Below are positions 1-21,047 of a stretch of DNA of 64,000 nt, piece by piece; position 1 is the first letter of the stretch, and the number at the start of each line of letters is the position of its first letter. The DNA lies in the NCBI RefSeq assembly GCF_003334305.1, contig NZ_QOWS01000003.1, one strand, 5' to 3'. Both the position numbers and the translations under genes were made by a program. The notes below the pieces were generated by a model. It ran no database searches and was not told the origin of the DNA. It saw only the letters and a list, made by a program, of their open reading frames with translations. Origin of the DNA: Escherichia coli (GTDB lineage: Bacteria; Pseudomonadota; Gammaproteobacteria; Enterobacterales; Enterobacteriaceae).

Positions 1-1563
1 ACCCAGCAGGTCTTGCAGCATAAAGCGGCCAGAACGAGTACCCGCATCCAGCGCGGTCAGGATGAACAGGGCTTCGAACAGAATACCGAAGTGATACCAG
101 AAGCCCATGTCAGCCATCGGCAGCACTTTGTGGAACACGTGAGCGATACCTACCGCCAGCGTTGGCGCACCACCTGCACGGTTCAGGACAGAAGGCTCAC
201 CAATGTCTTTCGCGGTTTGCAGGATCTGCTCTGGCGAAATCACGAAGCCCCAGGAGCTGACGGTCGCTGCCGCGTGTGCGGTAACGTCTTTCAGCTGCGC
301 CATGATGATCGGCGCGTTCTCGCCACCCATTTCATGCAGGTTAGGCATGGTGATGCCAAGGCCAGCAGGCGGGGTATTCATCGCGAAGTAAAGACCCGGT
401 TCGATGATGGACGCTGCAACCAGCGCCATAATCGCCACGAAGGACTCCATCAGCATTGCGCCGTAGCCAATGAAACGCGCGTCGGTTTCGTTAGCCAGCA
501 GTTTTGGCGTCGTACCGGAAGAGATCAGCGCGTGGAAGCCAGATACCGCACCACAGGCGATGGTGATGAACAGGAACGGGAACAGAGCGCCTTTCCACAG
601 CGGGCCAGTACCGTCAATGTACTGGGTCGTCGCAGGCATTTTCAGTTCCGGGTTCAGCACCACGATACCCAGCGCCAGGCCGACGATAACGCCGATTTTC
701 AGGAAGGTTGCCAGATAGTCGCGCGGTGCGAGGATCAGCCACACCGGCAGCAGTGCGGAAACAAACGCATAGCCAATCAGCGCGAAGGTAATGGTGGTGT
801 CTTTAAAGGTCAGTGCCGGACCCCAGTACGGATCGTGAGCAATCACGCCACCGAAGTAGATAGAGGCAACCAGCAGCACGATACCAATGACAGAGACTTC
901 ACCCACACGCCCCGGACGGATAAAGCGCATGTAGATACCCATAAACAGCGCAATCGGTACGGTTGAGCAAACGGTGAAAACACCCCACGGGCTTTCGGCC
1001 AGGGCTTTAACCACAATCAGCGCCAGGACGGCAAGGATGATGATCATGATTAAGAAACAGCCAAACAGCGCGATAGTCCCCGGTACTGGTCCCATCTCTT
1101 CTTTGATCATCTCACCGAGAGATGCGCCGTTACGGCGAGAGGAGATAAACAGCACCATAAAGTCCTGTACCGCACCGGCCAGTACTACCCCCGCCAGCAG
1201 CCACAGCGTGCCAGGTAGGTAGCCCATCTGCGCGGCGAGAACCGGACCAACCAGCGGACCAGCACCGGCGATAGCGGCGAAGTGGTGACCAAACAACACG
1301 TAACGGTTGGTCGGAACATAGTTCAGACCGTCGTTGTTAATAACCGCAGGCGTCGCGCGCGTGGGGTCGAGTTTCATCACCTTCTGGGCGATGTACAGAC
1401 TGTAGTAGCGATAAGCCACCAGATACACCGACACAGAGGCGACCACGATCCACAGGGCGCTGACGTGCTCCCCCCGACGTAATGCAACTACCGCGAGGCA
1501 GAATGCACCGATGATTCCGAGAATCACCCAGGGTATGTGCTTGAATAGTTTTTTCGTATCCAT
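1..1563 (-). CDS. btsT: Pyruvate/peptide transporter BtsT (CstA family), N-terminal part; gene runs off the window start
   Basis: Minus-strand translation from ATG at 1563 reads MDTKKLFKHIPWVILGIIGAFCLAVV..., CstA-family membrane protein; open to window edge so absent from ORF track. The + ORF 13..966 is its antisense. Confidence 0.8.
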   Translation of the reverse strand, partial: MDTKKLFKHIPWVILGIIGAFCLAVVALRRGEHVSALWIVVASVSVYLVAYRYYSLYIAQKVMKLDPTRATPAVINNDGLNYVPTNRYVLFGHHFAAIAGAGPLVGPVLAAQMGYLPGTLWLLAGVVLAGAVQDFMVLFISSRRNGASLGEMIKEEMGPVPGTIALFGCFLIMIIILAVLALIVVKALAESPWGVFTVCSTVPIALFMGIYMRFIRPGRVGEVSVIGIVLLVASIYFGGVIAHDPYWGPALTFKDTTITFALIGYAFVSALLPVWLILAPRDYLATFLKIGVIVGLALGIVVLNPELKMPATTQYIDGTGPLWKGALFPFLFITIACGAVSGFHALISSGTTPKLLANETDARFIGYGAMLMESFVAIMALVAASIIEPGLYFAMNTPPAGLGITMPNLHEMGGENAPIIMAQLKDVTAHAAATVSSWGFVISPEQILQTAKDIGEPSVLNRAGGAPTLAVGIAHVFHKVLPMADMGFWYHFGILFEALFILTALDAGTRSGRFMLQDLLG

Positions 1564-1911
1564 AGTAAAACCTGGCATTTTACTCGTCGTCTTTTGGCTT
1601 ACAGGTGCGGCAGCTGCGTTCGTTCACCTCTGTCACTTACTGTTGCAAGCTCCCGGGGATTCACTCACTTGCTGCCTTCCTGCAAACCAAAATCCATAGA
1701 GTAATTTGTTAATCATAGGCCGAAGCCGTTCTAGGTTTGCGTTGCGTTTGAGGAGGTAAATTGACCGCTATCCTGCAGTGATGTTGCCAGAGATACGCGC
1801 GCGTAAAGTAAGGTAAATAACTGAGTGGTTATTTTAGGGATGTAAGCGGTCAGGAATGGCGGTGAGCGGTTGGGCAAGAATTATTCATCGGGTGGATATG
1901 TGATTGAGATC

Positions 1912-1949
1912 ACAATAAAAATGCCCCTTCGACGAATGCGTGAAGGGGC
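1912..1949 (-). terminator. Rho-independent terminator downstream of hpaC
   Basis: Stem gccccttc (1923-1930) / gaaggggc (1942-1949) followed on the minus strand by a T-run (plus aataaaaat 1911-1919). Confidence 0.6.
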
Positions 1950-1955
1950 TGGAGC

Positions 1956-2468
1956 TTAAATCGCAGCTTCCATTTCCAGCATCACCGGATGGAAACGGCG
2001 TTTAAAGTAAATAAGTCCGTGACCTTCTGCACTGAGGATGATGTTTTTAATCTCCACCAGATACACCAGATGTGTGCCAATCGCCTGCACATCGCGGATC
2101 TCTCCTTCAAGACTGGCCAGCGAACCTTTCAGCACCGGCTGCGCCAGCGGACCTTTTTGCCAGCATGAGAGGCTAAAACGCTCTTCCATCGCCATGCCTG
2201 TCATGCCCGCGAAGTGGCGTGCCATCAGTTCCTGCTCATGGTTGAGGACGTTGACGCACAACTTACCGTTGCCCTGAAAAACCGGGTTCATCGCACTGTT
2301 GGCGTTAATGCACACCATCAGCGACGGTGGTGTATCCGTGACCGAGCAGACGGCCGTTGCCGTAATTCCGCATTGTCCGGCGTCGCCCTCGGTGGTGATA
2401 ATATTTACCGCTGCCGACAGGCTGGCCATTGCGTCACGAAAGCGCAGGCGTTGTTCATCTAATTGCAT
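1956..2468 (-). CDS. hpaC: 4-hydroxyphenylacetate 3-monooxygenase, flavin reductase component
   Basis: 170 aa ORF; small flavin reductase adjacent to hpaB; recognised from translation and operon context. Confidence 0.85.
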   Translation of the reverse strand: MQLDEQRLRFRDAMASLSAAVNIITTEGDAGQCGITATAVCSVTDTPPSLMVCINANSAMNPVFQGNGKLCVNVLNHEQELMARHFAGMTGMAMEERFSLSCWQKGPLAQPVLKGSLASLEGEIRDVQAIGTHLVYLVEIKNIILSAEGHGLIYFKRRFHPVMLEMEAAI

Positions 2469-2485
2469 CTTAACCTCCTGCTGCG

Positions 2486-4048
2486 TTATTTCAGCAGCTT
2501 ATCCAGCATGTTGATATCGTCGTTGTTGTGCAGGTGCGGCACAGTCCAGCCGTTCTGGTCGTATTCCGACAGGCAGCGATCAACCATCGCCATCATCTTG
2601 TCCATATTGCCGGAGCTTTGTGCCTGGCGCAGACACTGCAGGCGAATCTCATCCTGGCTACCGGAGTAGTTGATTTCATACAGTTCGTGACGACCACCAA
2701 ACTCGCTGCCAATGGCATCCCACATCAGTTTGAGGATCTTGATGCGCTGGACGTGATCCATACCGTTCGAACCGCGCACATACTTCGCCAGATACTGGTC
2801 GATCTGCGGATTGTTCAGGTCACGGGCACTGGAAGGGAGATAGATCAGGCCACTGGTAACGTTGCGTTCGATAATGTTTTTGATCTTCGCGTAGGCCATT
2901 GGTGCCAGTACGCGATAGGTTTGCAGTGCGGCATGATCCGGTAAATAAGCCCCGTTGACCCACGGCGTCGCTTCAGAACACATCGAGTCACTCAATGCCC
3001 AGAAGGTGTTGCGCCACGCCACCACTTCACCGAGATCGGCCTGCACACCACGGAACTCCAGGGTGCCGGTACATTCGAGTGATTTTTTCAGCAGTGCCGT
3101 AATGAAGTCGAGTTTCACTGCCAGGCGCACACAGGCTTGCAGCGGATACATACGGGCGAAACCGCCTTCCATCGTCCAGCGACGGCAGCGATCAAAATCG
3201 CGGTAGATCAGCACGTTTTCCCATGGGATCAGCACGTTATCCATCACCAGAATCGCATCGTTCTCATCGAAGCGGCTGGAGAGCGGGTAGTCGTACGGCG
3301 AGCCGGTAGCACCCGCGACCATCTCATAAGAGGCGCGGGAGATTAATTTCACGCCATCGGCATCCATTGGCGCAACGAACATCAGTGCGAAGTCCGGGTT
3401 TTCGCCCATTACTTGTGCCGAGCCGAAGCCAATCATGTTGTAGTGAGTCAGCGCCGAGTTGGTGGCAACCACTTTCGCACCGCTAACGATAATCCCGGCG
3501 TCAGTCTCTTTTTCCAGCTTGATGTAAACGTCTTTCACTTTATCGGTCGGCAAATGACGATCGATCGGTGGGTTAACAATCGCGTGGTTAAAGTAGAGGC
3601 CAGTTTCCTGAATACGGGTGTACCAGTTACGGGCGTTCTGCTCGAACTGACCGTAAAAGCCCGGATTCGCGCCCAGTGCGCAACCGAAAGCAGCTTTGTA
3701 GTCTGGGGTACGGCCCATCCAGCCATAGCTCAGGCGTGACCATTCAGCGATGGCGTCGCGTTGCTGGCGCAGGTCGTCGGCACTTTTCGCCACGCGGAAG
3801 AATTTATGGGTATAGCCGCCGCTGCCGGTGTCGGTGTTCCAACACAGAGAGTCCTGCATCTCCGGTTTGTGCAGCGCGTCGTACAGTTGGGCAACAGACG
3901 CTGCCGCATTACGAAATGCCGGATGAGTGGTGACGTCTTTCACTCGCTCGCCATAGATATAGATCTCGCGACCATCCTGCAGGCTTTTCAGATACTCTTC
4001 CCCGGTGAAAGGACGTTGGGTACTGGCGCGGAAATCTTCTGGTTTCAT
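2486..4048 (-). CDS. hpaB: 4-hydroxyphenylacetate 3-monooxygenase, oxygenase component
   Basis: 520 aa ORF MKPEDFRASTQRPFTGEEYLKSL...; length and sequence typical of HpaB. Confidence 0.9.
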   Translation of the reverse strand: MKPEDFRASTQRPFTGEEYLKSLQDGREIYIYGERVKDVTTHPAFRNAAASVAQLYDALHKPEMQDSLCWNTDTGSGGYTHKFFRVAKSADDLRQQRDAIAEWSRLSYGWMGRTPDYKAAFGCALGANPGFYGQFEQNARNWYTRIQETGLYFNHAIVNPPIDRHLPTDKVKDVYIKLEKETDAGIIVSGAKVVATNSALTHYNMIGFGSAQVMGENPDFALMFVAPMDADGVKLISRASYEMVAGATGSPYDYPLSSRFDENDAILVMDNVLIPWENVLIYRDFDRCRRWTMEGGFARMYPLQACVRLAVKLDFITALLKKSLECTGTLEFRGVQADLGEVVAWRNTFWALSDSMCSEATPWVNGAYLPDHAALQTYRVLAPMAYAKIKNIIERNVTSGLIYLPSSARDLNNPQIDQYLAKYVRGSNGMDHVQRIKILKLMWDAIGSEFGGRHELYEINYSGSQDEIRLQCLRQAQSSGNMDKMMAMVDRCLSEYDQNGWTVPHLHNNDDINMLDKLLK

Positions 4049-7548: not shown

Positions 7549-8352
7549 TTAAACAAAGCGGCAGCTAATGGAGCCCATGTTGCCGTAATCGACGTGGAAG
7601 GTGTCGCCCTTACGCGCCGGAACCGGGCGGGTGAACGAACCGCCGAGAATGATTTGCCCGGCTTCCAGTTGTACGTCATACGGTGCGAGTTTGTTCGCCA
7701 GCCAGGCCACGCCGTTTGCCGGATGATTTAGCACGCCAGCGGCGACGCCGGTTTCTTCAATCACGCCATTGCGATACATCAGGGCGGAGATCCAACGCAG
7801 ATCCAGTTCGTCTGGTTTGATCGGACGACCGCCGAGGATCACTCCGGCGTTGGCGGCGTTATCAGAAATGGTGTCGAACACTTTGCGCGGGCGCTGGGTT
7901 TCCGGATCGATGTTGTGGCAGCGAGCGTCGATCAGCTCCAGCGCCGGGATCACGTAGTCCGTGGCGTTGTAGACGTCGAACAGCGTGCAGTTTGGCCCAC
8001 GCAGCGGTTTTGCCAGCACGAAAGCCAGCTCCACTTCAATGCGCGGCACGATAAAGCGATCGGTCGGGATATCGCTGCCATCGTGGAAGAACATGTCGTC
8101 CAGCAATGCACCGTAATCTGGTTCGCTGATTTGTGAGCTGGCCTGCATCGCTTTCGAGGTCAGACCGATTTTGTGGCCTTTCAGCGTACGGCCTTCGGCG
8201 ATTTTCAGTCGAACCCATTCACGCTGCACCGCGTAAGCGTCTTCGATGGTGATCTCCGGGTAATCCAGGGAGATCGCGCGGATCTGTTCGCGCTGTTTTT
8301 CTGCCTGATCCAGACGCTGGGCGATCAGGGTGTGGGTGTGTTTATCGAACAT
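7549..8352 (-). CDS. hpaH: 2-oxo-hept-3-ene-1,7-dioate hydratase
   Basis: Hydratase-family ORF; start placed at [14 protein letters not shown] (267 aa). Confidence 0.8.
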
Positions 8353-8419
8353 AGCGATATCCTGTGGCATTGCCGGATGCGGCTGCGCCTTATCATCCGG
8401 CCTGGAAGCTGGTGCAAAT

Positions 8420-8800
8420 TTATTTAAACAACGCGTGCACGTTGTTTTGTTTAAAATTCAGCGTCGGGTGCAGCTCTGCAATCTCAAATGAAAGCGCCAG
8501 GTAACGGCTCTCCATCAGTGAGGCGAAGTGCGTTTTAATCAGATCAAACAGCATTTCGCCCACTTCCTGACGGCTTTCCAGGCTGCGCCCGCTGCCGATT
8601 TTTAGCGTCATATGCACAAAGGCGTAATCGTGCTTGCCATCAGCCATTTGCCAGGTATCGATCCAGTGCGCCCGGCTACGTATTCCCCCAAGCGGAAAAA
8701 TCCCCGTCGCCGCCAGTGCAGTGTTAACACTGGCAAACAGCTCAGGTAAGCGGGCTTCTTGACGAATATTTTCAGTACATTCCACGATAAAGTGCGGCAT
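8420..8800 (-). CDS. hpaF: 5-carboxymethyl-2-hydroxymuconate isomerase
   Basis: 126 aa ORF in hpa operon order. Confidence 0.8.
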
Positions 8801-8809
8801 GGTGGTTCC

Positions 8810-9661
8810 TTACGCGGGAAGCGGGAAAACAGCGTTAACCTGACCGGTGCCAGAGCTTGGGAATAGCTCGGTGATAAACTCCACCTTGCCGTCGTATTTA
8901 TCCCAGCCGAGCATCCCCAGCAGCATCACCGTGTCGTGCATATTGCCTTCGCCGTAGCAGTAGTCGGCGTACTCCGGCAGCATATTGCAGAACTCTTTGA
9001 ACTGGCCTTCGCGCCACAACTTCACCACGCGCTCGTCCATCTGGCGGTCGAACTCGCGGGTGTAGCTGTTCATCCCTTCTTCTGCACGCTGATCGTCAAT
9101 AAAGCGGTGCGATAACGAACCGCTGGCAAGGACCGCCACGGTGCCGTCGTACTGTTCGATCGCTTTCAGAATCGCTTCGCCCAGCTTGCGGCTGTCGGCA
9201 AAATCGTGAACCGTGCAGAAAGCCGAAATGGAGACCACTTTGAAGCGCTTGTCTTCATTCATGTAGCGCATCGGTACCAGCGTGCCGTATTCCAGTTTCA
9301 GGCTGGGAATGTTGTGCGCTTTTGCCCGCACGCCGAGCTTTAAGGCTTCATCGGCAATTAGCTGCCCCAACTCCGGGTTGCCCTCGTAGTTGTAGGTCAT
9401 GTCACGAATAAAATGCGGCAGCTCGTTGCTGGTGTAGACGCCTTCAAAATGGTCTGCACAGTTGATGTGATAAGCACTGTTGACCAGCCAGTGGGTATCG
9501 AAAACGATAATGGTATCGACGCCCATTTCCCGGCAACGCTTGCTGATCTCTTTATGCCCGTCGATCGCACCCTGGCGGCAACCGTGGTTTTTCCCTGGCA
9601 GTTCAGAGAGATACATCGACGGTACGTGCGTGATCTTGGCGGCTAACGCTAACTTACCCAT
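8810..9661 (-). CDS. hpaD: 3,4-dihydroxyphenylacetate (homoprotocatechuate) 2,3-dioxygenase
   Basis: 283 aa extradiol dioxygenase-like ORF in hpa operon. Confidence 0.85.
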   Translation of the reverse strand: MGKLALAAKITHVPSMYLSELPGKNHGCRQGAIDGHKEISKRCREMGVDTIIVFDTHWLVNSAYHINCADHFEGVYTSNELPHFIRDMTYNYEGNPELGQLIADEALKLGVRAKAHNIPSLKLEYGTLVPMRYMNEDKRFKVVSISAFCTVHDFADSRKLGEAILKAIEQYDGTVAVLASGSLSHRFIDDQRAEEGMNSYTREFDRQMDERVVKLWREGQFKEFCNMLPEYADYCYGEGNMHDTVMLLGMLGWDKYDGKVEFITELFPSSGTGQVNAVFPLPA

Positions 9662-9662
9662 A

Positions 9663-11129
9663 TCAGACTCCCCATTTCGGAATTGGATGGTCGCCCATGG
9701 AAATGCAGACGTTCTTCATTTCCGCGAACACTTCGAAGCTGTACTCACCGCCTTCACGTCCGGTGCCGGAGGCTTTTACGCCGCCAAACGGCTGGCGCAG
9801 GTCGCGGACGTTCTGGGTGTTGACGAACACCATGCCTGCTTCAATGCCACGCGCCAGGCGTAACACTTTGCTGACATCCTGTGTCCAGATGTACGACGCG
9901 AGGCCGTACTCCACGTCGTTTGCCAGGCGTAAGCCTTCGGCTTCGTCTTTAAACGGCAGCAGGCAGGCGACCGGCCCGAAAATCTCTTCCTGGGCGACGC
10001 GCATACGGTTATCAACGTCTGCCAGCACCGTTGGGCGCAGGAAGTTGCCGCCTTTCAGGTGTGCAGGCAGGTCAGACGGTTTATCCGGGCCGCCCGCCAG
10101 CAGGGTTGCGCCTTCTTCAATGCCGAGACGGATATAGCCGGAGACTTTTTCCCAGTGTTGCTGGCTGATAAGCGCCCCAACCTGGGTATTTGGATCGTTC
10201 GGATCGCCCACGCGCAGACGGTTGGCGCGTTCGGCAAAGCGTTTAACGAATTCCGGGTAGATGCTCTGCTGAATAAAGATGCGCGAACCGGCGGTGCAGC
10301 GTTCGCCGTTGATCGAGAAGATGGTGAACAGGGCGGCGTCCAGCGCGCGTTCAATATCAGCATCTTCAAAAATCAGCACCGGCGATTTACCGCCCAGTTC
10401 CATGGAGTATTTTTTCAGCCCGGCGTTTTTCATGATGTTGCGCCCGGTGGCGGTACCGCCGGTGAACGACACGGCACGCACGTCATGATGACGAACCAGC
10501 GCATCCCCTGCGGTTGCGCCGTAGCCCTGTACCACGTTCAGCACGCCTGCCGGAATACCGGCTTCCAGCGCCAGCTCACCCAGGCGGTCAGCGGTCAGCG
10601 GGGAGAGTTCCGACATCTTCAGCACCGCGGTATTGCCCAGCGCCAGACACGGCGCGACCTTCCAGGTGGCGGTCATAAACGGCACGTTCCACGGCGATAC
10701 CAGCGCACAAACGCCCACCGGCTGCACCAGCGTGTAGTTGAGCATCTTGTCGTCAACCGGATAGGTCTTGCCGTTCATCTGCTGGCAGACTTCCGCGAAA
10801 AATTCAAAGTTGTGAGAAGCGCGTGGGATCAACACATTTTTGGTCTGATGGATCGGCAGGCCCGTGTCCGCGGTTTCCATCGCGGCGATCTCCGGTACGT
10901 TCTGGTCGATCAGATCGCCCAGACGGCGCATCAGGCGCGCGCGCTCTTTCATCGGCAGATTGGCCCATTTCGGGAACGCCTCTTTCGCTGCCGCTACCGC
11001 CTGATTGATCTCCGCTTCACCGCCGGAGGCCACATCCGCCAGCACTTCACCCGTTGCCGGATTGGTAGTCTGGAAGTAGTCGTTACCTGCAACATTTTTA
11101 CCGTTGATCCAATGATTTACTTTTTTCAT
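9663..11129 (-). CDS. hpaE: 5-carboxymethyl-2-hydroxymuconate semialdehyde dehydrogenase
   Basis: 488 aa aldehyde dehydrogenase family ORF (…ELGGKSP… motif). Confidence 0.85.
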   Translation of the reverse strand: MKKVNHWINGKNVAGNDYFQTTNPATGEVLADVASGGEAEINQAVAAAKEAFPKWANLPMKERARLMRRLGDLIDQNVPEIAAMETADTGLPIHQTKNVLIPRASHNFEFFAEVCQQMNGKTYPVDDKMLNYTLVQPVGVCALVSPWNVPFMTATWKVAPCLALGNTAVLKMSELSPLTADRLGELALEAGIPAGVLNVVQGYGATAGDALVRHHDVRAVSFTGGTATGRNIMKNAGLKKYSMELGGKSPVLIFEDADIERALDAALFTIFSINGERCTAGSRIFIQQSIYPEFVKRFAERANRLRVGDPNDPNTQVGALISQQHWEKVSGYIRLGIEEGATLLAGGPDKPSDLPAHLKGGNFLRPTVLADVDNRMRVAQEEIFGPVACLLPFKDEAEGLRLANDVEYGLASYIWTQDVSKVLRLARGIEAGMVFVNTQNVRDLRQPFGGVKASGTGREGGEYSFEVFAEMKNVCISMGDHPIPKWGV

Positions 11130-12415
11130 TTCGCTGTTTCCTCACTCACAATTCGGTTCACCAGGCGGCCCACGCCTTCTACTTCCACCACCACTTCATC
11201 GCCAGGCACCACGTCAGATAAGCCTTTTGGTGTGCCGGTGGCGATCATGTCGCCCGGATTCAGGGTCATAAATTCGCTTAAGTAGGCGATCAGGAAGGGC
11301 ACGCTGAAGATCAGATCGGCGGTGGTGCCTTGCTGGCGTAACTCGCCGTTGACGAAGGTGCGAAGGGTCAGATTATGCGGGTCCGGGATCGCCTCTTTCG
11401 GCACGATGGTTGAAAGCATCGGCGTCAGTCCGTCGCGGCTTTTGACCCGCAGGTTAGGGCGGTAGTAGTTTTCCAGATAGTCGCGAATGGCGTAGTCGTT
11501 ACACACGGTGTAGCCCGCGACATAATCCATGGCATCGGCTTCGCTGACGTTACGCGCCTGTTTGCCAATAACTACCACCAGCTCCGCTTCATAGTGCATG
11601 TATTCAATATTGTTTGGACGCACGGAGGTCTGGTTATCGCCAGTGAGGGTATTTGGCGCTTTCAGGAACACCAGCGGTTCTTCCGGTGGCTTAAATTCCA
11701 GTTCGCTGGCGTGGTCGGCGTAGTTCAGGCCGAGGGCAAACAGCGTGCCGTGCGGGTGTGGCTGCGTTGGGAAGCTCTTGCGCGTGGTCACTTCACGTTC
11801 GTCCACTACCGGATTTTCCAGCGGCGGGAAACCTTCTGCGAGAACACGAACGCGATCGCCTGGCTGTATTTCCACGCGCGCCTGTGGCGTGCCGAGCAGA
11901 ATGGCATCGCCTGGATTCAGTGTGGCAAATTCGCTCAGGGCGCTCAGCAACTGCGCGGCGTTACGTTGTAAATCGGCGGTATTCCAGTGATCGGCAGGAC
12001 GCCCGTTGATCTCGGTATAGATGGTCAGATTATCGACATTGCTGAGAGCCACGGTTTCGCCAATGGGGCAGAATCCATCACGACATTTTGCTTTGATTGC
12101 CGGGCGGTAAAAGCTCTCTTCCGGCAGGCTGACGTCGTTAGCCAGCGCATATCCGGCGATGTACTCTGCCGCATCTTCTTCACGTACTTTCGTCGCCGTT
12201 TTTCCCACAATCAGCGCAACAGTCGCACCGCTCAGTACCTTTTCACCCTGTGGAAAGGGAATCGGTTCACCGCAACCAATCACCGTATTGCGCGGTTTAA
12301 TAAACCAGACCGCAGTTTTAGGCGGGGCTTTGTAGGGGGATTGCTGGAACGCTTCCTGCCATGCATCAAGTTGGCTGCGATGGTTCAACGCTACGGCGAA
12401 GATAGTGCCTTTCAT
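11126..12415 (-). CDS. hpaG: Bifunctional OPET decarboxylase / HHDD isomerase (duplicated FAH-fold)
   Basis: 429 aa with two internally similar halves; 4-bp overlap with hpaE start. Confidence 0.8.
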   Translation of the reverse strand: MKGTIFAVALNHRSQLDAWQEAFQQSPYKAPPKTAVWFIKPRNTVIGCGEPIPFPQGEKVLSGATVALIVGKTATKVREEDAAEYIAGYALANDVSLPEESFYRPAIKAKCRDGFCPIGETVALSNVDNLTIYTEINGRPADHWNTADLQRNAAQLLSALSEFATLNPGDAILLGTPQARVEIQPGDRVRVLAEGFPPLENPVVDEREVTTRKSFPTQPHPHGTLFALGLNYADHASELEFKPPEEPLVFLKAPNTLTGDNQTSVRPNNIEYMHYEAELVVVIGKQARNVSEADAMDYVAGYTVCNDYAIRDYLENYYRPNLRVKSRDGLTPMLSTIVPKEAIPDPHNLTLRTFVNGELRQQGTTADLIFSVPFLIAYLSEFMTLNPGDMIATGTPKGLSDVVPGDEVVVEVEGVGRLVNRIVSEETAK

Positions 12416-12421
12416 TACCAC

Positions 12422-12686
12422 TCCTCGGATTCGATCATTTTAATCATTAATATGTTAATGATTACTTTTATTCCCGATTGCGTAGTTTGGCAAAAGTAAG
12501 TGATGTAAATGTGATCTAATTAACAAACTATTTACATTTAAAGATAATAAAATATTAAATATCAGCAAGTTAACAAAACATGCTCAATTTTGATAAAATG
12601 AAGAATTGCAGGGGCAGCGCAGTCCCGGTAACGTGATGATTAACTGTTTCTATATTAATGATTTTGAATTTTTCAGGGGAAAGATA
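12422..12686. promoter_or_regulatory. Divergent hpaG / hpaR promoter-operator region
   Basis: 265 bp AT-rich gap between divergently oriented hpaG and hpaR. Confidence 0.5.
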
Positions 12687-13133
12687 ATGCACGACTCTCT
12701 AACCATTGCGTTGCTCCAGGCGCGAGAAGCGGCGATGAGTTATTTTCGCCCAATCGTTAAACGGCATAATTTGACTGAGCAACAGTGGCGCATCGTGCGT
12801 ATTCTGGCGGAAAGCCCATCAATGGATTTTCACGATCTGGCGTATCGCGCCTGCATTTTGCGCCCAAGCCTGACCGGGATCCTTACGCGGATGGAACGCG
12901 ACGGTTTAGTGTTGCGATTAAAGCCGATCAATGATCAGCGGAAGCTCTATATCTCGCTAACCAAAGAGGGGCAGGCGCTGTATAACCGCGCTCAGACACA
13001 GATTGAAGAAGCCTATCGGCAGATTGAAGCTCAGTTTACTGCCGAGAAAATGCAACAGTTAACCCATCTGTTAGAGGAATTTATTGCTCTGGGCAATTCC
13101 CGACAAGAAGACATCCCGGGCGATAATGAATAA
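12687..13133 (+). CDS. hpaR: MarR-family repressor of the hpa meta-cleavage operon
   Basis: Start at ATG 12687 (MHDSLTIALLQ…) with agggga RBS; 148 aa; MarR-like winged helix. Confidence 0.8.
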   Translation: MHDSLTIALLQAREAAMSYFRPIVKRHNLTEQQWRIVRILAESPSMDFHDLAYRACILRPSLTGILTRMERDGLVLRLKPINDQRKLYISLTKEGQALYNRAQTQIEEAYRQIEAQFTAEKMQQLTHLLEEFIALGNSRQEDIPGDNE

Positions 13134-13251
13134 CTTTTTAGTATCTGATAACCAGCGCCTGGTTTTTCCATGGATGGCGGGTTACACCTTTTCATAAAGT
13201 TTTTGCTTTCCAGGCCGAAAATCTTGCATCGGTCCACAGGAAAGAGAAACC

Positions 13252-14916
13252 ATGTTAAAACGTATCAAGATCGTGACCAGCTTACTGCTGGTTTTGGCTG
13301 TTTTTGGCCTTTTACAACTGACATCAGGCGGTCTGTTCTTTAATGCCTTAAAGAATGACAAAGAAAATTTCACTGTTTTACAAACCATTCGCCAGCAGCA
13401 ATCCACGCTGAATGGCAGCTGGGTCGCGTTGTTGCAGACGCGTAACACCCTCAACCGCGCGGGTATCCGCTACATGATGGATCAGAATAATATTGGTAGC
13501 GGTTCAACCGTTGCTGAGCTGATGCAGAGTGCCAGTATTTCGCTGAAACAGGCGGAAAAAAACTGGGCGGATTACGAAGCGTTGCCGCGTGACCCGCGTC
13601 AGAGCACCGCCGCAGCGGCAGAGATCAAACGTAATTACGATATTTATCACAATGCGCTGGCGGAGCTGATCCAACTATTAGGGGCAGGCAAAATCAACGA
13701 GTTCTTTGATCAGCCGACCCAGGGATATCAGGACGGTTTCGAGAAGCAGTATGTGGCTTACATGGAGCAAAACGATCGGCTCTATGATATCGCCGTCAGC
13801 GATAACAATGCCTCCTACAGCCAGGCTATGTGGATTCTGGTGGGCGTGATGATCGTCGTACTGGCGGTCATCTTCGCCGTCTGGTTCGGTATTAAAGCCT
13901 CGCTGGTAGCGCCAATGAATCGCCTGATTGACAGCATTCGTCATATTGCAGGCGGCGATCTGGTGAAACCGATTGAGGTGGATGGCTCTAATGAGATGGG
14001 GCAACTGGCAGAGAGTTTGCGCCATATGCAGGGAGAGCTGATGCGTACCGTCGGTGATGTGCGCAACGGGGCCAATGCCATCTATAGCGGTGCCAGCGAA
14101 ATCGCCACCGGCAATAACGATCTCTCTTCGCGCACCGAGCAACAGGCCGCTTCGCTGGAAGAGACGGCAGCCAGCATGGAGCAACTGACCGCAACGGTGA
14201 AGCAGAACGCCGAAAATGCGCGCCAGGCCAGCCATCTGGCGTTAAGTGCTTCTGAAACGGCGCAACGCGGCGGCAAAGTGGTGGATAACGTGGTGCAGAC
14301 TATGCGCGATATCTCCACCAGTTCGCAGAAAATCGCCGATATTATCAGCGTAATTGACGGCATTGCCTTCCAGACCAATATTCTGGCTTTGAACGCGGCG
14401 GTTGAGGCTGCGCGTGCGGGTGAGCAAGGGCGCGGTTTTGCGGTGGTTGCGGGAGAAGTGCGTAATCTGGCCCAGCGTAGCGCCCAGGCGGCTCGTGAAA
14501 TTAAAAGCCTGATTGAAGACTCGGTGGGGAAAGTGGATGTTGGCTCTACGCTGGTCGAAAGCGCCGGGGAAACAATGGCGGAGATTGTCAGTGCTGTGAC
14601 CCGCGTGACGGACATTATGGGCGAAATAGCTTCTGCTTCTGATGAGCAGAGCCGTGGTATCGATCAGGTTGGCTTAGCGGTTGCTGAGATGGACCGGGTA
14701 ACTCAACAGAACGCCGCGCTGGTGGAAGAATCTGCCGCCGCCGCCGCCGCGCTGGAAGAGCAGGCCAGTCGCCTGACCGAAGCTGTGGCAGTGTTCCGGA
14801 TTCAGCAACAGCAGCAACAGCAGCGTGAAACATCGGCTGTGGTAAAAACCGTGACGCCAGCTACGCCGCGTAAAATGGCAGTGGCAGATAGCGGGGAGAA
14901 CTGGGAAACGTTTTAA
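13252..14916 (+). CDS. tsr: Methyl-accepting chemotaxis protein I (serine chemoreceptor)
   Basis: 554 aa; HAMP and methyl-accepting domains; C-terminal NWETF pentapeptide; seven-Gln run at 14803-14823. Confidence 0.95.
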
Positions 14917-14929
14917 TCGCCATAAAAAT

Positions 14930-14955
14930 GCCCGATAAGCAAAATGTTATCGGGC
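14930..14955. terminator. Hairpin terminator between convergent tsr and lgoT
   Basis: Stem gcccgataa (14930-14938) / ttatcgggc (14947-14955); T-rich on the minus side. Confidence 0.5.
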
Positions 14956-14964
14956 ATAGGGAGA

Positions 14965-16326
14965 TTAATCTTTACGTGGGTCGTTGATCGGCTGACGAAC
15001 CAGGAAGATGTACGCCAGTGCCCCCGCTGCGGTGACGCAACCGCAGATGATTAGTGCCAGACGGAATGAGTGGGTGGTATCAACAATAAAACCAGTAATG
15101 ATCGGCGCAAAAGAGGCGCAGATGAAGCTGGCAAAGTTCTGGATACTGCCCACCGACGCAGTCATGCGAGAAGCAACTGCGACGTGGATCAAGCCCCAGC
15201 AGGATGTTCCGGCAAAGTGAATACAGAACAGTGCCATGCCAATCAGCAGAACCGCTGTCATGGATGTTGTCGCTTGCGGTACGACCAGCGTAAAGGCGGC
15301 AGAACAGAACATCCCGGCAATAATGCAGATCTTACGGCTTTTAATCGGAGCCATTCCCCCTTTGACCAGCCAGTCAGTAACGTAACCGTTGACCAGCATC
15401 CCGGCAGCCCCAAACAGGAAAGGGATAGCCGCCATCAACCCTGTGCTTTTTAAATCCAGGTTATAGGCTGTTTGCAGGTAACCAGGAAGCCAGGCCAGAT
15501 ACAGCCACGCAGTGTAGTTGATGCCACTGAATCCGAGCATCATTCCCCACATTGTGCGGTTACGGAACAGGCTGCGCCATTCGGCAAAACTGAGCGGATC
15601 TCGGCGGGCATTGACGCTACCTGCATTGAGATAAGCTTGTTCAACGGCAGTCAGTTCTACGTGCTCGCGGTTGCGATAGAGCATATACCAGCCAATGGCG
15701 AGAAAAATCCCCAGCACACCAATGGTAATAAACATCCCACGCCAGCCCATCACCAGCATCATCGCCGCCAGAATCGGTGGGCTTACGGCAACGCCAATGG
15801 TAGAAGCTGCGTTGAAGAAGCCCATCGGGCGTCCGCGCTCTTTGATGTTGAACCAGTCGTTAATGACTTTTACGCCACATGGGTTCATCGGCGCTTCACC
15901 AATCCCCATACCGATACGCACCAACACGAACTGCGTAAAGCTGTGCACCATGCCAGACATGGCCTGGAACAGTGACCAGAAGAACATCCCCAGTCCCAGC
16001 ATCAGGCGTGGGCCTTTACGATCCAATAGTGGGCCGCAAGGAAGTTGCGCAATCCCGTAAGCGAGTGAAAACACGGAGAGCAAAGCGCCGATTTCGGTGG
16101 CACTTAATCCCAATTCTTCACGAATCGTTAAATTTGCTACCGACAGCGAACTGCGGTCGAGATAATTGATTACCGCCGCAAAAAATAATAACAACATGGC
16201 GGTGGTTTGAATGCGTTTAATTCGGGTACTGCGTTGAACTAATCCATCTGGTGGCACGGGAATATCTGCCGACGAAGATGGAGTAAATGAAGAACGCGGA
16301 TCGAGGGTGATATTTTCTTTTTCCAC
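14965..16326 (-). CDS. lgoT: L-galactonate:H+ symporter (MFS)
   Basis: 453 aa MFS transporter; synteny with lgoR and lgoD (yjiZ). Confidence 0.8.
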   Translation of the reverse strand: MEKENITLDPRSSFTPSSSADIPVPPDGLVQRSTRIKRIQTTAMLLLFFAAVINYLDRSSLSVANLTIREELGLSATEIGALLSVFSLAYGIAQLPCGPLLDRKGPRLMLGLGMFFWSLFQAMSGMVHSFTQFVLVRIGMGIGEAPMNPCGVKVINDWFNIKERGRPMGFFNAASTIGVAVSPPILAAMMLVMGWRGMFITIGVLGIFLAIGWYMLYRNREHVELTAVEQAYLNAGSVNARRDPLSFAEWRSLFRNRTMWGMMLGFSGINYTAWLYLAWLPGYLQTAYNLDLKSTGLMAAIPFLFGAAGMLVNGYVTDWLVKGGMAPIKSRKICIIAGMFCSAAFTLVVPQATTSMTAVLLIGMALFCIHFAGTSCWGLIHVAVASRMTASVGSIQNFASFICASFAPIITGFIVDTTHSFRLALIICGCVTAAGALAYIFLVRQPINDPRKD

Positions 16327-16540
16327 GCCGGACTCCTGTATTTATAATTTTAATTGTTTACGTAATTGTGAATTACGCAAGGTTGACATTAACGGCAGGT
16401 TAAAGTTTTAGGACTTTACTACCGCTCACAAAAAAATTTTTAGTCGACTGATTGTGAGCATAGGTAAGCGGGAATTTCCCGGTATTTATCTTTTGATAAA
16501 ACCGTGCACCCGCTAATAGTTTGCTGTTTTTAATCCGTAC

Positions 16541-17455
16541 TTAATGAGCATAACGCGTGTTCTCATTAATGGATCGAATCATTGATTGTTTAGCTGAATT
16601 CAAATGGTTACGGAGCGCAAGGGTGGCATCAAGGTCACTGCGGCAAATCAGAGCGCTGAGAATGGTCATATGCTCATCGACGGCAATGATATTGCGCTGT
16701 TTAAGATCGCTTTCGTCCCATTGATAGTGAAAATGAAAGATGACTGAGATGATCTCAAGCGATTGATCAAAAAAGATATTGTCGGCAGCTGAAAGCAGTA
16801 AGGAGTGAAAATCTCTGTCAAGTTGCGAGAACATGCGAAAGCTATTGCCGATGTTGTCACGCAGTAGCCGATGACGTTCGAGCATGGTTTTCGCCTGCAG
16901 CCAGCGGGGATCATGATCAGGCAGGTTGAGAAAGTGCTGAAGTGAATGTGTTTCGAGCATTTCGCGTAGCTCAAACAGCTGCTCGGCGTAGGATTGATCG
17001 AATTGCTTCATGCTCCACTGGCCGCGTTTTTCGCTTTGAATAAGATTATAACGGCCGAATTTTAAAAGATATTCTCTTACAACCACCGGGCTGACACCCG
17101 CGGCCCGAGCCAGTTGCAGTTCAGAAAAAGTTTCCCCAGGGCGTAACTGACGCTGGTTTATCATCGTGAAAAAAGCCTGCTCAAACACTTTGTTTTGTTC
17201 ACTCATTGAAGCGGTAGTACAGGCGAAACCGTCATCATGGTCAGGTTTACGCGCAATAACATAGTCGTTTCCAACCTGCGTTAAGACGCCGCATTCGCGT
17301 AAGTGGCTGAGAATATGACGCACTGTTGTGCGGCTGATGTTGTACATTTCCGCCAGCGCACTTTGCGATGGAAGTGGGGAAGGGATATGACCCCGCGCCA
17401 TATCATCAATGACCTGGTTAATCACATTGTGGCGTAAATTTTGTGAACGACTCAT
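16541..17455 (-). CDS. lgoR: GntR-family transcriptional regulator of L-galactonate utilisation
   Basis: 304 aa; N-terminal GntR-type HTH (…LAEMYNISRTTVRHIL…) (yjjM). Confidence 0.8.
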   Translation of the reverse strand: MSRSQNLRHNVINQVIDDMARGHIPSPLPSQSALAEMYNISRTTVRHILSHLRECGVLTQVGNDYVIARKPDHDDGFACTTASMSEQNKVFEQAFFTMINQRQLRPGETFSELQLARAAGVSPVVVREYLLKFGRYNLIQSEKRGQWSMKQFDQSYAEQLFELREMLETHSLQHFLNLPDHDPRWLQAKTMLERHRLLRDNIGNSFRMFSQLDRDFHSLLLSAADNIFFDQSLEIISVIFHFHYQWDESDLKQRNIIAVDEHMTILSALICRSDLDATLALRNHLNSAKQSMIRSINENTRYAH

Positions 17456-17593
17456 ATTTTCCTCCTTGTGAGTCCATTAAAACCCGATTTAAAACATTTT
17501 TATGCGTGTGTTTTCACAAAACAGATTTTCCGTTCCGCTGCCATTTTTCATTTTCATTGATATCTAAGGCAACAAAAAATGGAGAGCCGAATC

Positions 17594-18616
17594 ATGTCTA
17601 CGATGAATGTTTTAATTTGCCAGCAGCCGAAAGAATTAGTCTGGAAACAACGCGAGATACCTATTCCGGGTGACAATGAAGCATTAATAAAAATTAAGTC
17701 TGTCGGGATTTGCGGTACCGATATTCATGCCTGGGGTGGAAATCAACCATTTTTTAGTTATCCACGTGTTTTAGGCCATGAAATATGTGGGGAGATTGTT
17801 GGGCTGGGTAAAAATATTGCTGATCTTAAAAATGGTCAGCAAGTTGCTGTGATCCCTTATGTTGCCTGTCAGCAATGCCCGGCGTGTAAAAGCGGGCGTA
17901 CCAATTGCTGTGAAAAAATTTCAGTCATTGGCGTGCATCAGGATGGCGGTTTTAGTGAGTATTTGAGCGTGCCGGTGGCGAACATTTTGCCCGCAGACGG
18001 TATTGACCCGCAGGCGGCCGCATTGATTGAACCTTTCGCTATTAGCGCTCATGCGGTGCGTCGCGCAGCCATTGCTCCCGGCGAGCAGGTGCTGGTGGTC
18101 GGGGCGGGGCCAATCGGTCTGGGCGCGGCGGCAATCGCTAAAACCGATGGCGCACAGGTGGTGGTGGCGGATACCAGTCCGGCGCGCCGTGAACATGTGG
18201 CAACGCGTCTGGAATTACCTTTACTGGACCCGTCAGCCGAAGATTTTGACGCGCAGCTACGGGCGCAGTTTGGTGGTTCGCTGGCGCAGAAAGTGATCGA
18301 CGCGACAGGTAATCAACATGCGATGAATAACACCGTGAATTTGATTCGTCACGGCGGCACGGTGGTATTTGTCGGCCTGTTTAAAGGTGAGTTGCAGTTT
18401 TCCGATCCGGAATTCCATAAAAAAGAAACGACGATGATGGGCAGCCGCAACGCCACGCCGGAAGATTTTGCTAAAGTCGGTCGACTGATGGCGGAAGGAA
18501 AAATCACTGCCGACATGATGTTAACCCATCGCTATCCGTTCGCCACGCTGGCAGAAACCTACGAGCGCGATGTGATTAACAATCGTGAGTTGATTAAGGG
18601 TGTAATTACTTTCTGA
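17594..18616 (+). CDS. lgoD: L-galactonate 5-dehydrogenase (Zn-dependent alcohol dehydrogenase family)
   Basis: Start at MSTMNVLICQQ (340 aa); GHEICG and GAGPIGLG motifs (yjjN). Confidence 0.8.
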   Translation: MSTMNVLICQQPKELVWKQREIPIPGDNEALIKIKSVGICGTDIHAWGGNQPFFSYPRVLGHEICGEIVGLGKNIADLKNGQQVAVIPYVACQQCPACKSGRTNCCEKISVIGVHQDGGFSEYLSVPVANILPADGIDPQAAALIEPFAISAHAVRRAAIAPGEQVLVVGAGPIGLGAAAIAKTDGAQVVVADTSPARREHVATRLELPLLDPSAEDFDAQLRAQFGGSLAQKVIDATGNQHAMNNTVNLIRHGGTVVFVGLFKGELQFSDPEFHKKETTMMGSRNATPEDFAKVGRLMAEGKITADMMLTHRYPFATLAETYERDVINNRELIKGVITF

Positions 18617-18642
18617 TAAGGCGAGATTATTAAAGTTGCCAT

Positions 18643-18745
18643 GCAGCGTCCGGGGAAGTGTTGGGCGCTGTTTTTTTTCTGTTTCTCAATGATGTTTTGT
18701 AGGCCGGAGAAGGTGTGTAGGTCGCACCTTATGCGACCTACACAT
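18643..18745. terminator. lgoD terminator plus REP-like palindrome between lgoD and opgB
   Basis: gcgctgtttttttt (18665-18678) T-run; palindrome tgtgtaggtcgcacc…gcgacctacaca 18714-18743. Confidence 0.5.
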
Positions 18746-18755
18746 CAGTCAGGAA

Positions 18756-21047
18756 TTACCCTTCACGTTCCACAACTTTAATTTCCACCATGCCGATCCC
18801 GAGCTTACGCGGCGAGTGTCCGAGGATATTCCCTTCGTTGGTTGAGACAGGTTCCGGCGGCACAATTACCAGTGTGTCGGCATCGGTTGGGTTATCGAAA
18901 TGCAGTGTGGTGGTGGTCACTTCATTGCCCAGCACAAGAGTTTGTTCTTCATTGCCTACGCGTACCGGAATAGGACGGCTGGCGTTATTGCCGTATGCTT
19001 TGGCGGTAATCACCAGGTCAAATTTCTTCGGCAGCGGATGCTTGTACTCGATTTTTACTTCATCGCCCAGCTGCGCGTTGGACCAGCGGCCCCACGACTC
19101 TGGACGGGAAATCCCACTAAACTGTTTCACCTCTTCAGGCGCACCGGCGACGTTGAAGATGAAACTGTCGGCTTTGTAGCGAATATCGTTATCAACAATT
19201 TTCAGCGTATCGACATTGCCTTTATAACGCGCCATGTCGATGACCGTATCTTTAAATGCCGTTTTGCCCTGCCATGTTGTTTTGTCAACATGCTGAACAA
19301 TTTGCTGACCGCCAAGCTGCCCTTGCGAGACACACCAGTCGGTGGAGAGTGCCAGTTCCGGAGCCCAGAGTTGTGCCATCTTATAGCAACGGTCAACCCA
19401 GACGAAATTGTCGCGTGGAGCGAAATCGGCCAGCTGGAAACGCAGCGGTGCTGAGTATTCGCTTTCCGGCAGCGGTTCTACGCGCTTGTCTGAAACCCGC
19501 AACAGCAGCGGCAAACGGAAATGGCTACCCGAGAAGGCAATCATGTTTTTCTGCTGGTCGATAGTGAACTCTTTCATCTCTTTAGGGAATTTCCACAGGC
19601 GGATGATATCCGGCTTCCACGCCAATGTTTTCTCTTTGATATTGAGGAAGATTTCCGACATCGACTGCCCGGATAAACTGCTACGACCAAGTCCGAGATA
19701 GTTATCGCCACCGAGAATGTCCAGCACCGTCGCGCCGTTATCCATCGTGTTACGCTTCACTGCCAGCGTCTCTTGCTGCGGCTTGTCGCCACGAATGACA
19801 AAAAACAGGTTATTGCGATCCTGCTTATTAAGGTATTTCCACGCCGTGTTGTTCATCGCTAAATGGTCAGAAGAGACGACGATGACGGTATCTTTAAACC
19901 ACGGTGACGCTTTGATTTTGTTGATAAACGCCGCGATATTCTCCTGGCTGCAACTTACCGCGCTGAATGACTGGTTCGGCTTACCGTCAAAATCATATTT
20001 TTTGCGGTTACAGGTACGCGAGATAAAACCATCCGGGTGATGGGTATCGACTGTCAGGGTAAACAGTGAGAATCGCTGACCTGAGCGGGAAAGCTCTTCA
20101 AACTTTTTCCACGCTTCATCGAGAACGGTATCGTCGTAGAATCCCCAGTCGTTGCGATAGTGCGGGTCGGCCACCACGCTTTTCAGCTCTTCTGAGCCGT
20201 ATAAGTGGTCGAAGCCATGCGACTTCAGGAACACATCTTTACCGGCAAAACGCAGATTCGCGCCCTGCACGAAATAGTTCTGATAACCCGAGTTTTTCAG
20301 GATATCGCCCAGACAGATGTTCTGCGGGAAGAAGCTGGAGACAGAGGCGGAGGCGTTGCCTTCAAAGGGGGCAAACAGCGGTATGCCGCACTGAGAAGCC
20401 ACCATGCCCGCAATCGTGTAATCCGTTCCTGGCAGCTGCTGCGTGTGGCTGAAATCCAGGCCTTCATTTTTCAACGCGCCCAGTTCAGGCGTGAGATCCG
20501 GGAAAGCTTCGTTATCAAAATAGGTCCGCTCGAGACTTTCGCCGTAGATATAAACCAGGTTGAGTTTCGGGTCAGGGATAGTTTTCGACGGCTCTTTATA
20601 ATAAGCCGCAAAGTCCGGGTCGCCATCGCGTGACTGGGATTTCACCAGTTCCGTTATCTGACGAAATGCCGGGCTGGCGTCCACCGAACCCAGCGCCAGT
20701 AAGAGCGCCAGCAGGCTGTAACCAAAATGGTGCGGATGATGGCGACGACGGCGCAGGATCCAGCCCAGCGCACCGAACACCGCTGTCAGCCCCAGCACAA
20801 TGCCGATACCCGGCAGGATGTATTTGCTGACGCCAGCACCGGTCAGGCTGTTGGTTAAGGTATAGAGAACCGCGTCGTTAATACCATCGCCAGTAAAATA
20901 GTCGCTGGCAAACAGGGTGATATTTAAAACGACAAATAGCCCCAGCACCGTTAATGTGGCTGCAAACCACCAGGTGTTACGTCCCGCTTTCCATGCGTAA
21001 ATCAGCACAGAGGCGAGAAAAAGGGCGAAAGAGAGTAGTTCTGACAA
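18756..21047 (-). CDS. opgB: Phosphoglycerol transferase I (osmoregulated periplasmic glucan biosynthesis)
   Basis: 763 aa; N-terminal TM segments plus sulfatase-like domain (mdoB). Confidence 0.9.

Follow-up and report, generated by a model that had tools for sequence, protein, structure and literature searches.

The window, a 64,000-nucleotide stretch of Escherichia coli DNA, carries tsr, which encodes the serine chemoreceptor (methyl-accepting chemotaxis protein I). The gene, the elements of its 3' end and the features downstream of it are listed in Table 1. An hpaR-like ORF of the MarR family (12606-13133) lies directly upstream of tsr, together with hpa genes for 4-hydroxyphenylacetate degradation (about 8000-13100). 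The 12 kb around tsr showed 100% identity to several E. coli chromosomes, for example those of strains A7 and H15, and chromosomes of this type share with the window the gene order hpa cluster - tsr - lgoT. At least 80% of positions 8000-20000 was covered in only 2,053 of 5,426 genomes, indicating that not all genomes have this 12-kb arrangement in its entirety.

Table 1. Features at the tsr locus (window coordinates)
Feature	Position	Strand	Remarks
tsr, serine chemoreceptor (methyl-accepting chemotaxis protein I)	13252..14916	+	ORF; 554 aa + stop
C-terminal tether, I517-E549	14800..14898	+	33 aa; preceded by R516, the last helix residue, and followed by the pentapeptide
Gln run, Q518-Q524	14803..14823	+	2.33 copies of the 9-nt unit CAGCAACAG; polymorphic
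Codon ACG, T538 (PATPRK)	14863..14865	+	GCG, Ala, in K-12 (PAAPRK)
Codon GGG, G548 (DSGENWETF)	14893..14895	+	GAG, Glu, in K-12 (DSEENWETF)
NWETF pentapeptide	14899..14913	+	end of the ORF; function from the literature (PMC7390727, PMC10561060)
Terminator-like hairpin common to tsr and lgoT	14928..14957	.	11-bp stem; T-run read on the - strand
lgoT (MFS transporter)	14965..16326	-	directly downstream of tsr, convergent

Structure matches, RefSeq annotation and comparison with K-12 agreed that the ORF has an MCP signalling domain orthologous to that of Tsr. A 221-nt query over the 3' end of the window tsr matched a feature annotated tsr in RefSeq in 5,383 of 5,426 complete E. coli genomes. The C-terminal 188 aa showed 100% identity with the Tsr portion of PDB 3ZX6_A and matched K-12 Tsr (6S1K_E) except for a 3-Gln gap and two substitutions, and the C-terminal region also matched PDB 1QU7 and 8C5V. 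Some of the 221-nt matches differed in length by 1 nt. Their interpretation as frameshifts was rejected, since these differences are located past the stop codon, in a stretch with another downstream gene. The gene found there is lgoT in the window, K-12, HS and FMU073332, and in CFT073, SF-468, LF82, 2014C-3051 and N50 it is replaced by a gene for a TRAP transporter large permease. No more than a few bases lie between this junction and the tsr stop codon, and the tsr tail therefore adjoins a variable region. The hairpin between tsr and lgoT was scored on the - strand; on the + strand an A-run precedes it.

The ORF closes with NWETF followed directly by the stop codon (14899-14916), which places the pentapeptide at the protein's extreme C-terminus. 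NWETF binds CheR and phosphorylated CheB, and is carried on an unstructured linker of roughly 30-35 aa (PMC7390727, PMC10561060). The boundary of the tether was set at I517 after PMC10561060, and its length was taken as the number of residues from 517 up to the one preceding NWETF. On this count the window has a tether of 33 aa, against 30 aa for K-12 and 36 aa for HS. The window value falls in the range of about 30-35 aa; disorder of the tether is taken from the Tar literature, where it is known from EPR work cited in PMC7390727 and PMC10561060. The Gln run starts one residue past the tethering residue R516. The 1QU7 crystal construct stops at residue 520 and the 8C5V chain at residue 516.

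The Gln run reads, in frame, CAG CAA CAG CAG CAA CAG CAG, exactly as the preliminary description reported it: seven Gln in a 554-aa Tsr that ends in NWETF. Tandem Repeats Finder returned a period of 9, the unit CAGCAACAG, 2.4 copies and 100% matches over 14803-14824, so that the tract consists of perfect unit copies arranged head to tail, as in a variable-number tandem repeat (VNTR). Strains differed by whole 9-bp units, again as in a VNTR, both in the 12 genomes read directly and in 180 sampled rows with span differences of 9 or 18 nt. The alleles were Q4 (1.33 copies, 12 nt), Q7 (2.33 copies, 21 nt) and Q10 (3.33 copies, 30 nt), which give Tsr proteins of 551, 554 and 557 aa with tethers of 30, 33 and 36 aa, respectively. 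The tract does not behave as a contingency locus or phase-variable gene, since the unit is of 9 bp and every allele seen was in frame with the NWETF end. A second short coding repeat of tsr, (GCC)x5.7 at window positions 14734-14750, encodes an Ala run and is also polymorphic; strain TUM14664 has A4 and a 552-aa Tsr. The Tsr of strain 3PT has 543 aa and is without 11 residues between two AAL motifs.

The Tsr encoded by a K-12-type chromosome (L001/L088) has 551 aa and contains QQQQ, PAAPRK and DSEENWETF. The named K-12 genomes (substr. RV308 and strain DHB4) matched it in having the Q4 length, and the wild-type K-12 Tsr tail given in Table 1 of PMC10561060 is the Q4-type tail of this chromosome. 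These sequences bear out the preliminary description of K-12 Tsr, namely a protein of 551 aa with about four Gln at this site and with PAAPRK and DSEENWETF in place of the PATPRK and DSGENWETF of the window. The DNA alignment of the window with the K-12-type tsr had a single in-frame 9-nt gap within the CAG/CAA tract and nothing else there, so the two runs differ by exactly one 9-bp unit CAGCAACAG, encoding QQQ. Over the whole protein the differences between window and K-12-type Tsr were Q92E, Y178H, +QQQ, T538A and G548E. K-12 Tsr (551 aa; 6S1K, 1QU7) is thus the product of the same gene in the same place beside lgoT, and like the window protein ends in NWETF, but it has four residue differences outside the repeat, one 9-bp unit fewer and a tether of 30 instead of 33 aa. 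PATPRK was also found in CFT073, SF-468, LF82 and 94-3024, and Gly at the position of residue 548 is also the state in most outgroup orthologues.

To survey the frequency of the alleles, all complete E. coli genomes (5,383 with tsr) were searched with three queries that were alike except for how many repeat units they contained. The Q7 query (101 nt, megablast) had matches of at least 95% identity and the same length in 4,060 of the 5,383 genomes, with 2,720 at 99% or above. The Q4 query (92 nt, megablast) and the Q10 query (108 nt, blastn, single gapped alignments) had matches of at least 95% identity in 1,286 and 72 genomes, respectively. For each query 60 evenly spaced rows were sampled and classified by match span. 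The Q7 sample held 46 matches of equal length, one of them an interrupted allele, and 14 shorter by 9 nt; the Q4 sample held 14 Q4, 44 Q7 and 2 Q10 alleles, and the Q10 sample 13 Q4, 45 Q7, 1 Q10 and 1 divergent allele. Combined, the data gave frequencies among complete E. coli genomes of about 74% for Q7, 23% for Q4 (K-12 included), 1.3% for Q10 (72 genomes) and 1% for other forms, the counts for the whole collection being based on match spans and identity bands instead of on sequence extraction. Megablast with repeat-containing queries merges two overlapping pieces into one place, and the identity bands mix alleles. Some Q10 genomes were joined as two-piece megablast matches, which puts an uncertainty of a few tens on the Q7 and Q4 totals.

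About 1% of E. coli genomes carried an interrupted run, QQEQQRQ, equal in length to Q7. No run lengths other than those of Q4, Q7 and Q10 were found in the 180 sampled rows, a sample that 3-nt variants (Q5, Q6, Q8) below about 2% would escape, and a four-copy allele, Q13, had no single-piece full-length match among the best 15 rows of a search that joins overlapping pieces. Strains with Q7 were O157:H7 Sakai, O26:H11, O104:H4, CFT073, ATCC 25922, O127:H6 and NCTC86; Q4 was found in K-12 derivatives and many others, and strains with Q10 include HS, LF82 and NRG 857C. Q7 is the majority allele of E. coli, and the window is ordinary at this locus. Seven Gln in both K-12 and most strains would have contradicted the expansion proposed in the preliminary description; most strains (about 74%) do have seven, and K-12 has Q4.

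The tails of twelve genomes besides the window were read directly. Q4 occurred on the K-12-type tail (RETS / PAAPRK / DSEE), on the tail of AMSCJX03 (PVAPRK / MVVADSGE) and on that of SF-468 (REAS / PATPRK / DSEE). Q10 also occurred on three tail haplotypes, represented by HS (K-12-like tail), LF82 (B2-like tail) and 94-3024 (window-like tail), and HS and the K-12-type strains have the same tail with 3.33 and 1.33 copies, respectively. Q4 and Q10 were each found on at least three tail haplotypes in these direct reads, a pattern that recombination could also give. The presence of each of these alleles on several haplotypes argues for a small coding repeat with 1, 2 or 3 copies. The tract thus appears to behave like a short in-frame tandem repeat in which entire units are gained and lost, and recombination between haplotypes could contribute.

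The interrupted QQEQQRQ was read in FMU073332, LR-58-1 and N50, where it has seven residues. Its DNA in FMU073332 and LR-58-1 is CAG CAA GAG CAG CAA CGC CAG, from which N50 differs at synonymous sites. The tsr 3' end that carries it, present in about 1% of E. coli genomes, is strongly divergent, its DNA being about 91% identical across 100 nt. This 3' end is similar to the allele found in a cryptic-clade genome, and recombination may have brought it in.

Orthologues were taken from a scan with one genome per species. The position of V514-F515 was constant in 20 of the 20 orthologues checked among the matches listed, and all length variation therefore lies in the tether. In the 15 Enterobacteriaceae orthologues among the matches listed, length varied wholly after residue 516 and the tether measured 32-36 aa, 33 aa being the commonest length (8 of the 15) and 30 aa, the K-12 length, being found in none. 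At the position of the Gln run Leclercia has QQDQQKA, Enterobacter cloacae QQEQQKA and Citrobacter werkmanii QHDQQRA. QQAQQRQ was found in L036, a genome labelled E. coli that was taken as cryptic clade, its Tsr being only 95% identical. E. albertii, E. fergusonii and Salmonella were not among the matches listed, and the direction of change is therefore read from more distant genera and this one cryptic-clade genome.

The interrupted seven-residue segments, together with the 32-36-aa tethers of the orthologues, suggest that the seven-residue length is ancestral, and the perfect Q7 would then be an E. coli-specific, homogenised version of the ancestral segment. The perfect Q7 may go back to three point changes in QQEQQRQ or, alternatively, to duplication in a Q4 intermediate. 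K-12 carries a minority allele with a tether shorter than in any orthologue surveyed among the matches listed; since orthologue tethers are of 32-36 aa and never of 30 aa, the 30-aa tether of K-12 appears to be a derived as well as a minority state.

Taken together, Q7 is very probably the commonest natural allele of a short 9-bp (CAGCAACAG) coding tandem repeat located at the start of the unstructured tether of Tsr. Slippage during replication, or unequal recombination, would occasionally remove or add one of the perfect 9-bp copies, always in frame. The two-copy allele of the window would retain the ancestral tether length, the Q4 of K-12 would be a derived contraction by one unit and the Q10 of HS and LF82 an expansion by one unit.

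Variants of Tar with engineered tether lengths reportedly go back to Li and Hazelbauer in 2006 and Bartelli and Hazelbauer in 2011. The C-terminal linker of Tar is, like that of Tsr, an unstructured tether of about 30-35 aa that ends in NWETF and holds CheR and CheB near the methylation sites. In Tar the length of the tether scales the position of the enzyme, as determined with engineered variants that differ by 5-12 residues (PMC10561060), whereas the variation in Tsr is natural, has a step size of three residues and is located at the tether's proximal end. For Tar tethers of 22, 29, 34 and 46 aa, each residue shifts the fitted most-probable position of CheR, x0, by 0.128 +/- 0.048 nm (intercept 6.0 nm), a contour length of 0.36 nm per residue being assumed (PMC10561060). 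On these values each 9-bp unit of tsr would alter the reach of pentapeptide-bound CheR/CheB by three residues, adding about 1.1 nm to the contour length and moving the most probable position by about 0.4 nm, a change of a few per cent. Such a 3-residue step would stay within the 32-36 aa range of related genera. As tethers of 32-36 aa in the orthologues and of 30-36 aa in E. coli are tolerated, the variation in tether length of Tsr is probably close to neutral.

The linear relation between CheR position and tether length in Tar (PMC10561060) would also agree with copy number being a selected tuning knob, by which lineages repeatedly switch between 30-, 33- and 36-aa tethers and alter adaptation of the serine response by niche. 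The occurrence of Q4 and Q10 on several tail haplotypes each, hence apparently recurrent changes, and the restriction of these changes to whole 9-bp units point the same way. However, neutral slippage and recombination near the variable junction (lgoT or the TRAP transporter gene) predict the same pattern, there are just three alleles of which one is dominant, and no association with host or source was visible in the 180 sampled rows. Moreover, a literature search found no paper describing natural copy-number variation of the tsr Gln run. We consider selection of this kind unlikely.

The proposal of the preliminary description amounts to a 9-bp triplet-repeat gain specific to the lineage of this genome, with a longer tether that could tune CheR/CheB adaptation kinetics. 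This proposal is largely refuted by the population and outgroup data and seems very improbable. Q7 is carried by about 74% of complete genomes, across O157:H7, O26, O104:H4, CFT073, ATCC 25922 and NCTC86, and outgroup orthologues share the 33-aa tether, none among the matches listed having 30 aa. Three residues are predicted to shift an x0 of roughly 10 nm by about 0.4 nm. What stands of the proposal is the clean 9-bp in-frame difference seen in the alignment, by which the window is longer than K-12 at exactly this tract, and the influence that the length of the tether has on methylation kinetics in Tar (PMC10561060). The notion of an expanded run in this genome was rejected, since a Q7 majority in the species and outgroup tethers mostly of 33 aa reverse the direction of change. 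That the run is an artefact of sequencing or assembly, for which only the repetitiveness of this low-complexity tract speaks, has practically no probability, because the surrounding 101 nt recurs near-identically in thousands of independent genomes, with identical sequence in thousands of independently assembled complete ones, the 21-nt tract is far below the length of any read, and the same allele is present in the cloned crystallisation construct 3ZX6.

With other in-frame VNTRs of bacterial genes the tsr tract shares perfect tandem copies and whole-unit differences between strains, and it may also share recurrence on different backgrounds. It differs from them in its very low copy number (1-3), in having three alleles only and in being without on/off switching. 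Copy-number variation of tsr is in this respect an ordinary kind of polymorphism. The Q7 allele itself is already known from thousands of annotated genomes and from PDB 3ZX6, a fusion of Af1503 HAMP and Tsr that has Q7, PATPRK and DSGENWETF, all as in the window, and no difference in the last 188 residues; this identity indicates that the allele has already been cloned and deposited.

Since Q7 is the norm of the species, it matters little for the window itself, and at the tsr tail a departure from the K-12 sequence says little about whether an allele is unusual. The 30-aa tether of K-12, as against the typical 33 aa, is relevant to quantitative models of CheR/CheB tethering that use K-12 lengths. 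In PMC10561060 the Tsr tether (30 aa) is described as shorter than that of Tar (34 aa), in keeping with the geometry of the methylation sites; the 30-aa Tsr tether is a peculiarity of K-12, because most E. coli have 33 aa. It is conceivable, if rather doubtful, that with the three discrete tether lengths carried by E. coli (30, 33 and 36 aa) the serine-adaptation parameters of K-12 are unrepresentative, which would be the case if 3-residue steps measurably change the reach of CheR/CheB. If so, the argument of PMC10561060 on the relative tether lengths of Tsr and Tar would likewise be unrepresentative of most E. coli.
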